Shown: positions 3,591 to 62,842 of the stretch, piece by piece
How the letters are laid out: every line of letters begins with the position of its first letter
How positions within the stretch are numbered: position 1 is the first letter of the stretch
Assembly (NCBI GenBank): GCA_041650715.1
Contig: JBAZKQ010000001.1
Location: 723,913-787,912 of the forward strand
Direction of reading: 5' to 3'
From: Patescibacteria group bacterium
Lineage (GTDB): Bacteria; Patescibacteriota; Patescibacteriia; Patescibacteriales; UBA12465
DNA: 64,000 nucleotides
Notes under the pieces: generated by a model
What the model saw: only the letters and a program-made list of their open reading frames with translations
Database searches by the model: none
What the model was told of the DNA's origin: nothing
Program-made: the position numbers and the translations under genes

Positions 3591-4961
3591 ATGAAAAAAA
3601 TAAAACATTTTTATATACTGTCTATTTTATTTTTTGTTTTATTTCCATTTTTTTTAGTTTCTGCTGATATCGCTCCAATGGGAAAGGTTAATAGTGCTGC
3701 TGATTTCAATGCTTGGGGCGGAGGCAAGTGCGTCTACTATTCGGGCGGGGGCTGCAGCTCGGGCCAATGGTTAAATAGTGACAAGAGTAATTGCGCCTGG
3801 GAGCCCTGTTGCAAACAACACTTGGATGGCTATCCCGCCAACGACTTTATTTATCGATTTGCGACTCTTAATACTCCTTGTGTTAGTAAGACCGGTTTAA
3901 CTGAGACCATAGAACCTGACCAAACAAAATGTGTTAATCCAAACTTTGACTGCTGCTGTCCGGGTGCTCCAATTATTGCGCAGCAAAGTACCGTAGAAGA
4001 AAAAAAAGCCATCTATACTCCTCCCGATTTGCAGGTGAAGATACCAGGTATGGAAAAACTGTCGACTATCAGTTGTGACGAAACCGGACAATGCGAAATT
4101 CCTTGGCTCGGGCAATATGTAATCGGTATTTATAATTACGCCCTGAGCATCGTCGGTATTTTAGCGGCCATTATGCTCATGGCCGGCGGCCTACTTTGGT
4201 TAATTTCGGCCGGAGATGCTTCAAAAATAACTCAAGCGAAAGAGCTTATCACCGGCAGCGTTACCGGCCTAATTATTTTGGCCGCCTCTTTTATAATTCT
4301 TGTCCAAATTAATCCTAACTTGGTAAATTTTAATGCCCTTAGTTTATCTTCAATCAAGCGAGTAGATCTCGGTGATGCCGCTTGGACCCCAATAGTTTCC
4401 ACTAAACAATCGGTTGCGGCCTATTGCGGCTGTGTTGATTGGCATACCTTATATGCAGGTTCTAATCTAAAATCAGCCTCGGCGATAAAAGCGAAATTAG
4501 CAGGTTCACCCTTAGAAAGTTATAGCGATTTAGTTGCTTCTGCTTGTCAGCAAACCCAAATTGATCCGGCTTTAGTTTTAATTATTTGGCGCGTTGATAG
4601 TATCTACGCAACCGCCGGTCCAGGAAAAAAGAACAACAATCCCGGTAACGTCCGCTGCGGTGAGAAAAAAAGTGGCAATGGCTGGACCTGCGTCGACAAC
4701 TTCAGGCATTATGATAATCTCGCAATCGGCATTACGGATTGGTTTGTCGTTGTTGGCCAAGGCAAGCGCCTGAGCTCAAGTAAGAATATTCGTGAATTAA
4801 TTAAAACCTATGCCCCACCCAGCGATCATAATGATACTCAAGCCTATATTAATTTGGTTATGAGCGCGATAGACTCCGCTCACGGCGGCCAATTAAAAAC
4901 GACCGACGGCAGTGCCGCTTCTTTGCAGAAATGTACCGATATAAATAGTACTTGCCCATAA
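3591..4961 (+). CDS. secreted pilin-like membrane protein: Cys-rich N-domain, two-TM pilin core, lysozyme/SLT-like C-domain (tentative)
   Basis: Signal peptide (FFLVSA|DI). Core IPWLGQYVIGIYNYALSIVGILAAIMLMAGGLLWLISAGDASKITQAKELITGSVTGLIILAASFIILVQINPNLVNF. The C-domain has QIDPALVLIIWRVDS...NNNPGNVRC, which resembles the lytic transglycosylase/muramidase helix plus NNxxN motif, with D in place of the usual catalytic E. Confidence 0.65.
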   Translation: MKKIKHFYILSILFFVLFPFFLVSADIAPMGKVNSAADFNAWGGGKCVYYSGGGCSSGQWLNSDKSNCAWEPCCKQHLDGYPANDFIYRFATLNTPCVSKTGLTETIEPDQTKCVNPNFDCCCPGAPIIAQQSTVEEKKAIYTPPDLQVKIPGMEKLSTISCDETGQCEIPWLGQYVIGIYNYALSIVGILAAIMLMAGGLLWLISAGDASKITQAKELITGSVTGLIILAASFIILVQINPNLVNFNALSLSSIKRVDLGDAAWTPIVSTKQSVAAYCGCVDWHTLYAGSNLKSASAIKAKLAGSPLESYSDLVASACQQTQIDPALVLIIWRVDSIYATAGPGKKNNNPGNVRCGEKKSGNGWTCVDNFRHYDNLAIGITDWFVVVGQGKRLSSSKNIRELIKTYAPPSDHNDTQAYINLVMSAIDSAHGGQLKTTDGSAASLQKCTDINSTCP

Positions 4962-57941: not shown

Positions 57942-60545
57942 ATGAAACCAGACAGCAAAAAACCAAATATATTTACTTTTGAATCATATTCGATTAATGA
58001 AAAAACGGATACGATTAATTTTTGTTATTCTTTCGACAATGGCCTTAAATTTACGGAAACAATTTCTCTCGGCGGGGGTAAAATCGATTGGCATCGCGTC
58101 AATCGCCCATTAATTACCAGGATAATTTTTAATCTCCAGCTCGCTCTCGGGATTGGTTATTATAAAGCTTATTGCCCGAAAAAAATACTTATTAAAAGCG
58201 GCGCGCTTTCCCGCGGAGAAGCCGAATTTTGGAATAAACTTTATACTAAAGGCCTCGGCGAATTTTTTTATCGCAATAAAATTGATTACCGCGGTTTAAT
58301 TAATTTCCCTTACCAAAAAAATAAAAGTACTCAGGCCGTCACTATTAAATTAAGTGAGCGCGTTCTTCTCCCTTGGGGTGGCGGTAAAGATTCATGCGTC
58401 TCTGCTGAACTCTTAAAAGAGTTGGGGCACGATTTTACTCTTATTACTTTACGCGATAGCGATATCCAAAGAGCCACGGCGAAAATAAGCGGTAAAGCGC
58501 GCATTATTAATGATCGTATTATCGACCCGGCTCTTATTGAATTAAATAAGTCCGGTGTTTATAATGGCCATATTCCAATTTCCGCAATTTACGCCTGGAT
58601 GACGGTTTTGGGTGCGGTTCTTTATGACTATAGCCACATTATTTATTCTAATGAAGCCAGCGCCAATTTTGGGAACATCAATTATCTGGGCTCAGAAATA
58701 AATCATCAATATAGTAAGTCGCTTGAATTCGAAAATGATTTTCGGGATTATTTAAAAAATTTCGTTTCTCCCGACATTAATCATTTTAGTTCCCTGCGCC
58801 AATTTTCTGACTTAAAAATCAGCCGCCTTTTTTCCAAATATCCAAAATATTTTCCCGTATTTTCCAGTTGTAACCGCAATTTTTCAATTACGAAGAAAGC
58901 GGCTTCGCGCTGGTGCGGCGAGTGCCCGAAATGTTTATTTACTTTTTCCCAACTGGCCGCATATATTGAACGCCCGAAGTTAATCGCCACCTTCGGCCAA
59001 AATTTATTCGCGCGCAAAGAGCTTCTACCTTTATTCCAGGAGCTGTGGGGCGAAAAAAAATTTAAACCCTTTGACTGCGTCGGCACACCCGGCGAAGTTC
59101 GGGCCGCCCTGCTTTTAAGCGCGGCCAAAAAAGATTGGAATCAAGACTTTATCGTAAAATATTTTAATAAACAGATCGCTCCGAAAATAAGCAATCCGGG
59201 AAAGTTGATTAATGATGCCTTAAAAAATAAAACGGAACATAATATCCCGGCCAATTTCCGCTCAACTTTGATTCTCGGTTTTGGCATCGAAGGTAAATTT
59301 GCCGCCGACTACTTACAAAAAAAATATCCCGGTTTTAAATTTGCGATTGCCGACCAAAAAGATGGACCGGACTATTTATCTGCGGTAAAGGACTATGATG
59401 TAATTATAAAATCACCCGGCATTAGCCTCCGAGAACCGGAACTCGTCGCTGCCCAAAACTCCGGCCGAGAAATAACTTCGATTACTAATATATTCTTGGA
59501 AAAATATGGCGCGCAAACTATCGGCGTTACCGGCACCAAGGGAAAAAGTACGACCGCTTCGCTTATCTATGAAATACTTAAGGCCGCCGGAAAGAACGTC
59601 TATCTGGTAGGCAATATCGGCTTCGACCCGCTATCGCACCTCCTCTGTGCACCCGACAAAAATAAAATATTTGTCTACGAATTATCGAGCTATCAATTAG
59701 AAAGCGCTAAACACAGCCCCCATATTTCCGTGTTTATCAATATCTTCCCCGATCATCTGCCTTATCACCGCGGCTTTAATAATTATTTTAAAGCCAAAAC
59801 CAATATCACTAATTTCCAGACGCCCGCCGACCTTTTTATTTACAACGATAAATATCCGGCCATAAAAAAACTAGCGGCCCGCACGCCGGCGCAAACCCTG
59901 GCCTACCCAAAAGAATGCTCCGTCCGTGGCACCAATATTTATTATTTTTCAGAAAAAATAATTGCCTTGTCTGACATTAAACTTTTGGGTGAACATAATA
60001 TTAAAAATATTATGGCGGCCATCTGCGTGGCTAAAAATTATAAAATCTCCACGGCCGCGATTAAGCGCGCCTTAAGTAAATTCACCAATCTCAATCACCG
60101 TTTAGAATTTGTCGGCCGGTTTAAAAATATCGCTTTTTACGACGACGCAATTTCCACCACCCCGGAATCAACGCTGGCGGCTATTGAAGTATTCAAAGAA
60201 AAAATTGGCACCCTTATTTTAGGCGGCGAAGACCGCGGCTATAAATTCGGCGCCTTAGCCAAACGCTTGGCTGAACTTAAAATCAGAAATTATGTTTTCT
60301 TTCCGAATAGCGGGCGAGCAATTGCGTCCGCGATTCAAAAAGCGTACCAGAAAAAAGGACTAAAGGCTCCAGACATCCTATTCACCAAAAGTATGGCTGA
60401 AGCCGTAAAATTTGCCTATAAAAATACCGCGGCCGATCAGATTTGTCTCCTTTCCACCGCCTCGCCAAGCTATTCAATCTTTAGAGACTTTAAAGAGAAG
60501 GGAGATTTATTCCAAGCCGCCGTAAAAAAGACCGCTAAATTATGA
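57942..60545 (+). CDS. murD: fusion protein: N-terminal PP-loop (adenine-nucleotide alpha-hydrolase-like) domain plus C-terminal UDP-N-acetylmuramoylalanine--glutamate ligase (MurD)
   Basis: 867 aa. The N-half has PWGGGKDS (SGGxDS-like PP-loop) and WCGECPKCLF. The C-half has a MurD Rossmann N-domain (ILGFGIEGKFAADYL) and a GVTGTKGKSTT P-loop. Confidence 0.75.
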   Translation: MKPDSKKPNIFTFESYSINEKTDTINFCYSFDNGLKFTETISLGGGKIDWHRVNRPLITRIIFNLQLALGIGYYKAYCPKKILIKSGALSRGEAEFWNKLYTKGLGEFFYRNKIDYRGLINFPYQKNKSTQAVTIKLSERVLLPWGGGKDSCVSAELLKELGHDFTLITLRDSDIQRATAKISGKARIINDRIIDPALIELNKSGVYNGHIPISAIYAWMTVLGAVLYDYSHIIYSNEASANFGNINYLGSEINHQYSKSLEFENDFRDYLKNFVSPDINHFSSLRQFSDLKISRLFSKYPKYFPVFSSCNRNFSITKKAASRWCGECPKCLFTFSQLAAYIERPKLIATFGQNLFARKELLPLFQELWGEKKFKPFDCVGTPGEVRAALLLSAAKKDWNQDFIVKYFNKQIAPKISNPGKLINDALKNKTEHNIPANFRSTLILGFGIEGKFAADYLQKKYPGFKFAIADQKDGPDYLSAVKDYDVIIKSPGISLREPELVAAQNSGREITSITNIFLEKYGAQTIGVTGTKGKSTTASLIYEILKAAGKNVYLVGNIGFDPLSHLLCAPDKNKIFVYELSSYQLESAKHSPHISVFINIFPDHLPYHRGFNNYFKAKTNITNFQTPADLFIYNDKYPAIKKLAARTPAQTLAYPKECSVRGTNIYYFSEKIIALSDIKLLGEHNIKNIMAAICVAKNYKISTAAIKRALSKFTNLNHRLEFVGRFKNIAFYDDAISTTPESTLAAIEVFKEKIGTLILGGEDRGYKFGALAKRLAELKIRNYVFFPNSGRAIASAIQKAYQKKGLKAPDILFTKSMAEAVKFAYKNTAADQICLLSTASPSYSIFRDFKEKGDLFQAAVKKTAKL

Positions 60546-61777: not shown

Positions 61778-62092
61778 GCCTCGGTAGCTCAGTGGTAGAG
61801 CAAAGGACTGGTTTTCGGTCCGCTCAATGGAAACATTGAGATGAAAATCGGGTGAATTCGGGGAAGCCTTAATTTAGAAATAAAAAAGGTAATCCCGAGC
61901 CAAGCTTTAATTGGGTAAATAATTAAAGAAGGTGTAGAGACTAGCGGGTGAGCCCAACAATAACCCCGCCGCGAGCGCCCGACTCCGTCCTTAAAAATTA
62001 AGCGGAGATGATATAGTCCGATCCTTAAGGAAACTTAAGTTGTAGCAAGGAAAATCCTTGTGTCGTCAGTTCGATTCTGACCCGGGGCACCA
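61778..62092 (+). tRNA. tRNA-Phe(GAA) interrupted by a group I intron; CCA encoded
   Basis: Exons 61778-61809 and 62050-62092 join to GCCUCGGUAGCUCAGUGGUAGAGCAAAGGACU|GAAAAUCCUUGUGUCGUCAGUUCGAUUCUGACCCGGGGCACCA. This makes a normal cloverleaf with anticodon GAA. Confidence 0.85.
61810..62049 (+). ncRNA. group I intron (IC3-like) in the tRNA-Phe anticodon loop
   Basis: P1 pairs exon GGACU with the intron guide GGUCC (61817-61821), with a U.G wobble at the 5' splice site. The intron ends in G. Core strings AAUUCGGGGAAGCCUUAA, AAUCCCGAGCCAAGCU and GAAGGUGUAGAGACUAG match tRNA-borne IC3 introns (Azoarcus tRNA-Ile, cyanobacterial tRNA-Leu) as I recall them. Confidence 0.85.
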
Positions 62093-62103
62093 ATCAGTAG
62101 ATA

Positions 62104-62153
62104 AAAAAGTGAACCCATGATATAATTATACTGTTACCGTGGGTTCACTTTTT
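62104..62153 (+). terminator. long hairpin plus T-run after the tRNA cluster
   Basis: AAAAAGTGAACCCA ... TGGGTTCACTTTTTT. The loop contains TGATATAAT, an extended -10-like sequence. Confidence 0.6.
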
Positions 62154-62158
62154 TATTT

Positions 62159-62842
62159 ATGCGTTTAGATAAACTAGAAGTCATAGAATTAAGAAAATCC
62201 GGCCAGTCTTATGGTCAAATAAGTGCTTCTTTGCATATTCCGAAAAGCACCCTTAGTGTTTGGCTAAAAGATATTAAACTTTCACAAATCGCGCAAAAAA
62301 AGATAAGGTCTCGGACAAATTTAACTGCTATAAGCAAATTAATTGAGAGAAATAAAAACCAAACCATCCTTGCGGCCGACAGGCAGGAGAAAATTCGGTC
62401 CTTAGCTAAGGCCGAGTCAAAAAAATTACTTTTAGATCCTCTATTTCTGGCCGGCGTTTCCTTATATTGGGCCGAAGGCTATAAACAAGGGGCGCTCGGC
62501 AGCAAATGGAAAAGCATTGACTTTGCCAACTCCGATCCGGAAATGATCAGATTGATGGTTAATTTTTTCACAAAATTCTTTGAATTTAAAAAAACAGAAA
62601 TTAAAGTCCAAATAATGCTGCACAATCCAAAAGACTCCACCGCGGCTATTAATTTTTGGCAACATCTTACGGGCATACCAAAAACCAATTTTTTTAAAGT
62701 TTCCACAGCTATTAGCCGGGCCAGTTTACAAAAGAGAAATAAAAAACTACAATATGGAACGATACACCTGAGAGTCAATAAGGTCGAATCTTTTTTTCGT
62801 CTGATTGGGTGGATTGATGGTTTAAAAGAAAAATTATTATAA
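62159..62842 (+). CDS. LAGLIDADG-like homing-endonuclease-family protein with N-terminal HTH (tentative)
   Basis: 227 aa. N-terminal HTH (SGQSYGQISASLHIPKSTLSVWLKD). Single LAGLIDADG-like helix (DPLFLAGVSLYWAEGYK). Wedged between two tRNA genes; its stop abuts tRNA-Pro. Confidence 0.45.
   Translation: MRLDKLEVIELRKSGQSYGQISASLHIPKSTLSVWLKDIKLSQIAQKKIRSRTNLTAISKLIERNKNQTILAADRQEKIRSLAKAESKKLLLDPLFLAGVSLYWAEGYKQGALGSKWKSIDFANSDPEMIRLMVNFFTKFFEFKKTEIKVQIMLHNPKDSTAAINFWQHLTGIPKTNFFKVSTAISRASLQKRNKKLQYGTIHLRVNKVESFFRLIGWIDGLKEKLL

Follow-up and report, generated by a model that had tools for sequence, protein, structure and literature searches.

Group I introns are placed in subgroup IC3 by the formal criteria of the Michel-Westhof scheme. 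A survey of ~80,000 bacterial genomes for tRNA introns extended the combinations of host tRNA and insertion site from the four classical types (Leu.3Ug, Arg.5Ug, fMet.2Ug, and Ile2.5Ug) to 21 (Williams, 2020; bioRxiv 10.1101/2020.01.27.920355). The supplementary seed alignment of that preprint includes Mba55.Phe.2Ug, an intron inserted at loop position 2 of a tRNA-Phe, with U at position -1 and a terminal guanosine (omega G). Group I introns have also been reported to make some tRNAs of CPR bacteria hard to detect (PMC8172020).

Here we describe an intron in a tRNA-Phe(GAA) gene of a Patescibacteria genome, located in a 64,000-nucleotide stretch of DNA (the window; coordinates are positions in this stretch; the interrupted gene with its intron elements, the neighbouring 227-aa ORF, and the 867-aa gene described below lie on the + strand). 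Judged from its sequence and those of its relatives, it is very probably a functional, self-splicing group I intron of the Phe.2Ug class that carries no ORF and separates U33 from G34 of what is probably the sole tRNA-Phe gene.

Comparison with described tRNA introns

We compared the window intron (61810-62049, 240 nt) with 13 published seed sequences. Mba55.Phe.2Ug gave the top score and aligned through the whole core, with ~82% identity at the aligned positions and a much shorter P9 in Mba55; Lys.2Ug ranked second, Asn.4Ug third, and the Azoarcus Ile2.5Ug intron lowest of the 13. Mba55.Phe.2Ug and the window intron share the host tRNA, insertion after U33, U-1, omega G, and the core, and both carry an extra hairpin, with the loop UGAG(U/C)CCAACAAUAA(U/C) in Mba55. 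They differ in the exon/guide pairing, which is GCCCU/GGGGC in the Mba55 lineage and GGACU/GGUCC in the window. By host, insertion point, U-1, omega G, and seed homology, the window intron belongs to the Phe.2Ug class, and this combination of host and site is not new. The original prediction had treated tRNA-Phe as an unlisted host and the 33/34 insertion as uncommon. Neither view held: Mba55.Phe.2Ug was catalogued in 2020 and the intron is common in the phylum, with at least 61 Patescibacteria loci of this kind found here, and 33/34 is the classical site of the cyanobacterial tRNA-fMet intron (fMet.2Ug). Beyond the Williams preprint, our search of the literature on tRNA-Phe group I introns found nothing relevant.

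The introns next in rank, Lys.2Ug (Dba165) and Asn.4Ug (Pam37), have the same P3 (GGGUG/CGCCC) and J8/7 (AUGAGAUAGUCC) as the window intron, and in both, as in the window, P7 is followed by a hairpin whose loop reads ...AAC(C)AAUAA. Host tRNA or insertion position is different, and the bases of their P6 and hairpin loops are different but still complementary. The cyanobacterial fMet.2Ug intron (Biniszkiewicz et al., 1994) has the same 33/34 site, an IC3-type core, U-1, and omega G. It differs from the window intron in its host tRNA, its larger P9 domain, and the lack of a hairpin after P7, and some copies hold an endonuclease gene inside the intron, whereas the window intron is ORF-less. The Azoarcus tRNA-Ile(CAU) intron (Aol6.Ile2.5Ug) is nearly identical to the window intron in J3/4-P4, P4'-P6, and J6/7-P7 (AAUUCGGCGAAACC, CGCCGAGCCAAG, and GAAGGUGUAGAGACUAG), and in both introns L2 and L9 are GAAA tetraloops, which are nearly invariant in our alignment of relatives (A1, below). 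Unlike the window intron, it is inserted after position 36, has no hairpin after P7, and has a different J8/7.

The core strings had been described as close to those of the Azoarcus and cyanobacterial tRNA introns, and they do match the published Azoarcus seed sequence. The proposed IC3-like assignment stood in part. The IC3-type core strings, a P2 without P2.1, and GNRA loops on P2 and P9 are all present, but a 26-nt hairpin lies between P7 and P3', where Azoarcus-type IC3 introns have no peripheral helix. We describe the intron as IC3-related, with an added P7.1-like element.

The interrupted tRNA-Phe gene

The interrupted gene is the third of a cluster in the order tRNA-Ile(GAU), tRNA-Met(CAU), tRNA-Phe(GAA), an ORF of 227 amino acids, and tRNA-Pro(UGG). 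Its 5' exon (61778-61809) supplies tRNA positions 1-33, that is, the acceptor and D arms, the 5' strand of the anticodon stem, C32, and U33 (the 5' half of the tRNA is GCCUCGGUAGCUCAGUGGUAGAGCAAAGGACU). The 3' exon (62050-62092; GAAAAUCC...GCACCA) supplies positions 34-76 with an encoded CCA, and the 3' half reads GAAAAUCCUUGUGUCGUCAGUUCGAUUCUGACCCGGGGCACCA. The intron between them starts with GGUUUUCGGUCC and its last bases are ...GCAAG. ARAGORN with default settings missed the interrupted gene; with introns allowed, it reported tRNA-Phe(gaa) i(33,240). Removal of these 240 nt had been expected to leave a normal tRNA-Phe, and deletion of 61810-62049 in silico did yield a perfect, canonical 75-nt tRNA-Phe(GAA) with a standard cloverleaf. 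The 64 kb of the window and the extra downstream flank in L001 contain no second tRNA-Phe, and this Patescibacteria genome probably has no tRNA-Phe gene besides the interrupted one.

Two features of the setting were recorded separately. The 3' CCA encoded in the window tRNA-Phe (62090-62092, GCACCA) is absent from 19 related interrupted genes (e.g., GCACAAA and GCACATT). Positions 57942-60545 encode an 867-aa protein in which a MurD-type Mur ligase is fused to MurL-like domains, one N-terminal and one epimerase (Pfam).

Related interrupted tRNA-Phe genes

Relatives were sought in one genome per species with a pattern consisting of the P7-3' strand GATATAGTC, a gap, and the tRNA-Phe 3' half, which gave 30 loci. 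At 19 of these, tRNA-Phe(GAA) is interrupted at the same point by an insert of 224-266 nt, with 72-90% identity to the window intron and mostly the same tRNA cluster. Their labels are Falkowbacteria, Magasanikiibacteriota, Parcubacteria, Paceibacterota, or Patescibacteria, except for five labelled "uncultured Gammaproteobacteria". An independent metagenome scan anchored on the neighbouring ORF added ~40 further interrupted tRNA-Phe genes. In total, 61 interrupted genes could be parsed exactly, all with the same insertion place, in a sample biased to relatives in that loci were gathered by a sequence pattern (GAUAUAGUC plus the tRNA-Phe 3' half) or by the ORF. ARAGORN labelled some interrupted tRNA-Phe genes as Ser, Leu, Pro, or Phe(aaa); an explicit exon parser re-assigned L017, L064, L080, and L092, with L095 not among them.

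The remaining pattern matches included eight false positives from Burkholderiales and Treponemataceae, in which tRNA-Phe is uninterrupted and GATATAGTC lies ~20 nt upstream. The string recurs in this position in the Burkholderiales loci L003, L007, L024, L026, L027, L030, and L031 and may be a conserved promoter -10 region there. Two loci from Planctomycetia and Omnitrophota MAGs (L011 and L014) contain a non-Phe tRNA with UGU in the anticodon region (Thr-like) and were left out of the alignment. For this Thr-like tRNA, parsing of the exons suggested an insert of 585 nt that does not end in G, with tentative boundaries. The L011 site is at 4263-4468, and in L011 Rfam detects a group I intron (52 bits) next to the tRNA.

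The five MAGs labelled "uncultured Gammaproteobacteria bacterium" (L005, L010, L016, L028, and L029) have the Patescibacteria-type interrupted tRNA-Phe, three of them also with the ORF, and tRNA-Met, tRNA-Ile, or tRNA-Ala adjoins where the flank is present. Assignment of these MAGs to Gammaproteobacteria looks doubtful. The pattern also hit L015, which is labelled likewise, but its 5' exon was not found.

Intron helices and covariation

The Rfam group I model (RF00028, Intron_gpI) matched 61801-62040 over its full length (model positions 1-253) with 93.3 bits (E = 1e-22), compared with a curated gathering score of 50 bits. The minimum free energy fold of the precursor recovered P1, P2, P3, P4-P6, P8, and P9 and was more stable than shuffled sequences (z = -4.5). 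The intron signal is far beyond chance. No coding capacity was found in the insert (61810-62049).

We evaluated the individual helices on alignment A1, which comprises one published sequence, the window intron, and its 19 relatives, with an explicit P1-P9 structure that includes the P7 pseudoknot. Standard pairs were formed in 93.6% of cells, against 28-49% when partners were slid by 1-3 columns. Changes on both sides were found for 39 pairs, a number reached by none of 500 shuffles (mean 23.3). The observed value was reached in 0 of 500 shuffles on four of the five measures and in 40 of 500 on the other, further pair types. Compensatory changes were many in P2, P6a, the extra hairpin, P8, and P9, with some in P3 and P4.

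P1 (61805-61821) is formed by exon bases GGACU (61805-61809) and the internal guide GGUCC (61817-61821), with the wobble U61809.G61817 at the 5' splice site. It is 100% paired in A1, with compensatory changes in three of five pairs. The five intron bases directly 5' of this guide strand (UUUUC, 61812-61816) pair with GAAAA of the 3' exon (62050-62054) as P10. A contiguous 10-nt guide (61812-61821, UUUUC-GGUCC; UUUUCGGUCC) can thereby pair with tRNA positions 29-38, divided into P1 (29-33, with the U.G wobble at the end) and P10 (34-38). Both halves vary with their exons. The P1 exon/guide combinations among the 61 genes are GGACU/GGUCC, GGAUU/GAUCC, GCCCU/GGGGC, and GGCCU/GGGCC, and for P10 the window lineage has GAAAA/UUUUC, while another has GAAGA with UCUUC or UCUUU. 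Because the guide co-varies with both exons, we place the junction at 61809|62050. A one-nucleotide ambiguity had been left at the 3' splice site (GG); P10 removes it, and so does the length of the anticodon loop, which is 7 nt at this junction, as moving the junction by one base in either direction gives a loop of 6 or 8 nt that ARAGORN cannot assign.

P2 (61823-61840, CUCAAUG-GAAA-CAUUGAG) has compensatory changes in all seven pairs. The P3 strands UCGGGUG (61848-61854) and CGCCCGA (61976-61982) are 100% paired in A1, with two compensatory pairs. Pair support in A1 was also found for the P4-P5 domain (61858-61898; P4 UCGGGG/UCCCGA, P5 GCCUU/AAGGU) and for P8 (61983-62007). The P6/P6a hairpin (61899-61933) has the loop bases GGG at 61913-61915 and compensatory changes in all seven P6a pairs. 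P7, presumed to be the guanosine-binding helix, joins GAGACUA with a bulged A (61937-61943) to UAGUCC (62014-62019), before which lies J8/7 (AUGAUA). Both strands align to RF00028, and the helix is 100% paired yet invariant in the 21 sequences, hence uninformative on covariation. P9 (62024-62039) is closed by its GAAA tetraloop and is 100% paired, with four compensatory pairs. The terminal guanosine (omega G, 62049) and the U-1.G pair are found in all 61 interrupted tRNA-Phe genes. Judged from this alignment, the P3-P9 core helices, including the P3/P7 pseudoknot, are kept by compensatory changes, with P7 itself invariant.

The main elements of the original prediction were borne out by these results: an insert of group I type behind U33 in tRNA-Phe(GAA) by the Rfam score, the in-silico splice, and the covariation; P1 (GGACU/GGUCC) with its U.G wobble and the GAAA hairpin of P2 by pairing or compensatory changes; and an intron ending in G by its recurrence in every parsed gene.

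A hairpin between P7 and P3' and its probable loop contact

The P7.1-like hairpin (61944-61969, 26 nt) reads GCGGG-UGAGCCCAACAAUAAC-CCCGC, with CCC at 61953-61955 in its loop. It is an insertion relative to the Rfam model, and four of its five stem pairs show compensatory changes in A1. Hairpins of this kind are present in the published Phe.2Ug, Lys.2Ug, and Asn.4Ug seeds, whereas none follows P7 in the seeds of the four classical types (Leu, Arg, fMet, and Ile2). Its loop, UGAGCCCAACAAUAAC, is almost invariant across A1. Three bases of this loop are complementary to three bases in the 5' part of the P6 loop, and a change at one site is matched by a change at the other. The P6 and hairpin loops are GGG and CCC in most sequences, AGG and CCU in L019, L025, and L028, GAG and CUC in L049 and L056, and GUG and CAC in L092, so that the covariation comes from few variant lineages (3 + 2 + 1 sequences). 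The published seeds for Lys and Asn also show such loop pairs, GCC/GGC and AGG/CCU. From these paired changes, the P6 loop probably pairs with 3-4 bases of the extra-hairpin loop and would thereby stabilise the fold. We found no description of a P6-loop/P7.1 contact in the searchable literature, a search range outside of which much of the older group I literature lies.

A second architecture of the insert was seen in the tRNA-Phe introns of L044, L047, L075, L089, L097, L103, and L110. A UUCC-GNRA-GGAA hairpin, GUACUC, and a second hairpin replace the single hairpin with the CCCAACAAUAA loop in these introns. Introns with the two-hairpin architecture lack the GGG of the P6 loop.

The neighbouring ORF family

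The 227-aa ORF that follows the tRNA-Phe gene (62159-62842) has an N-terminal helix-turn-helix (HTH) domain, its sole family match in Pfam and NCBIfam, and a conserved C-terminal domain with invariant E106, K109, D121, N124, D126, Q151, H155, H203, and R205. Its family counts at least 242 members at E <= 0.001. Among the 120 members listed, every source-given name is Patescibacteria and the annotation is at most "hypothetical" or "helix-turn-helix". Homologs are found in L004, L006, L012, L016, L017, L019, L021, L028, L029, and L033-L112. No nuclease fold was found in searches of Pfam, NCBIfam, and PDB profiles, and an AF2 model (pLDDT 87.9) had no significant Foldseek match in PDB or BFVD. 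A LAGLIDADG homing endonuclease, guessed from the motif "LAGVSLYWAEGYK", was rejected after these same searches (Pfam, NCBIfam, PDB profile, and Foldseek) gave no match.

At 80 ORF-anchored loci, the ORF almost always adjoins tRNA-Phe(GAA), in one of three arrangements: downstream on the same strand (25 homologs with at least 48% identity and four more distant ones), upstream on the same strand (17 loci), or divergent (four loci). All 25 homologs with at least 48% identity and enough upstream sequence follow an interrupted tRNA-Phe. Overall, the tRNA-Phe beside the ORF is interrupted at ~50 loci and uninterrupted at 13, and four ORF copies follow tRNA-Glu(UUC) instead. In the intron-anchored set, the ORF is present at 9 of 19 loci and absent from the other 10. 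The spacer between tRNA-Phe and tRNA-Pro measures ~735-756 nt with the ORF and 27-219 nt without it, and loci whose introns are near-identical may differ in whether the ORF is present (L025 vs. L028, L020 vs. L029). Because it adjoins tRNA-Phe and is present or absent between near-identical introns, the ORF gene is a tRNA-Phe-linked, apparently dispensable gene, recently gained or lost, which behaves like a selfish element. It does not depend on the intron.

Between tRNA-Phe and the ORF, at 62098-62155, a T run comes after a long inverted repeat (GUGAACCCA...UGGGUUCAC), with a promoter-like TG-TATAAT in the loop of the repeat and the promoter-like site spanning 62098-62126. This region may combine a terminator of the tRNA cluster with a promoter of the ORF.

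Proposed splicing and alternative explanations

By the established group I mechanism, splicing of the window intron would begin with an external guanosine bound in P7 that attacks after U61809. G62049 would then replace it in the guanosine site, and the freed 3'-OH of U33 would attack after G62049, so that U33 and G34 become ligated in tRNA-Phe(GAA). The guide of the intron tracks lineage-specific changes of the exons, so the intron seems to be passed on mainly along with its tRNA gene.

An intron of this kind could also be a decaying remnant that no longer splices, in a tRNA pseudogene replaced by a tRNA-Phe copy elsewhere. Inspection covered the 64 kb of the window and a few kb beyond it, in a genome of ~0.8 Mb, which leaves space for such a copy. 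We nevertheless consider a remnant very unlikely: all core elements are intact, the exons form a perfect tRNA-Phe, compensatory changes keep P1, P10, P2, P3, P4, P6, P8, and P9 across 20-61 genomes, and some CPR tRNAs are detected only when group I introns are allowed (PMC8172020). Still further from plausible, and rejected here, is an assembly chimera or another type of insert, such as a group II intron, an IS element, or a protein-spliced tRNA intron. Apart from the metagenomic origin of the contig, nothing speaks for it; ~60 assemblies, obtained independently and from different samples, share the architecture, only the group I model of Rfam matched, and the insert has no coding capacity.

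A different proposal concerns the unit that moves. The intron and the 227-aa ORF could form a composite mobile unit, in which the ORF product would act as a free-standing homing endonuclease and cut tRNA-Phe genes that lack the intron, while the intron would split the target site and so protect the host allele ("collaborative homing"). Free-standing homing endonucleases that act with ORF-less introns are known from T4 (mobE/I-TevIII; PMC2790892) and a cyanophage (F-CphI; PMC6083498). The likeness, an analogy only, is that a dispensable gene with a DNA-binding domain, here the N-terminal HTH, adjoins an ORF-less group I intron. The ORF's own promoter-like site (62098-62126), its clean presence or absence in the spacer before tRNA-Pro (L025 vs. 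L028, L020 vs. L029), its place beside tRNA-Phe in three arrangements, and the prevalence of interrupted neighbours (~50 vs. 13, and 25 of 25 among the closer homologs) fit this proposal. Unlike the phage proteins, the ORF shows no nuclease family, motif, or fold in Pfam, NCBIfam, PDB profiles, or Foldseek on the AF2 model, and some copies lie next to uninterrupted tRNA-Phe (13 copies) or next to tRNA-Glu (4 copies). It is missing from 10 of 19 intron-bearing loci, and its association with interruption may reflect linkage to tRNA-Phe only. We regard the composite unit as unlikely. Equally doubtful, in our judgement, is the wider proposal that the ORF family is a new kind of free-standing selfish homing endonuclease, aimed at tRNA genes and with an unrecognised catalytic fold, which co-evolves with the Phe.2Ug intron as a two-part mobile unit in Patescibacteria, and, separately, that the P6-loop/P7.1-loop contact is an undescribed tertiary contact that defines a branch of IC3-like tRNA introns specific to the CPR. 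The account we favour is a self-splicing Phe.2Ug intron that travels mainly with its tRNA gene.

Significance

The loop-loop contact and the tRNA-Phe-linked ORF family are both leads worth keeping. The 61 natural variants make up a set of compact (~240 nt) IC3-like introns, with a covariation-supported loop-loop contact that is amenable to mutagenesis. The ORF family, if it is a nuclease, would explain the movement of ORF-less tRNA introns in Patescibacteria. For annotation, default tRNA finding with ARAGORN misses the interrupted gene, with the result that Patescibacteria genomes seem to lack tRNA-Phe.
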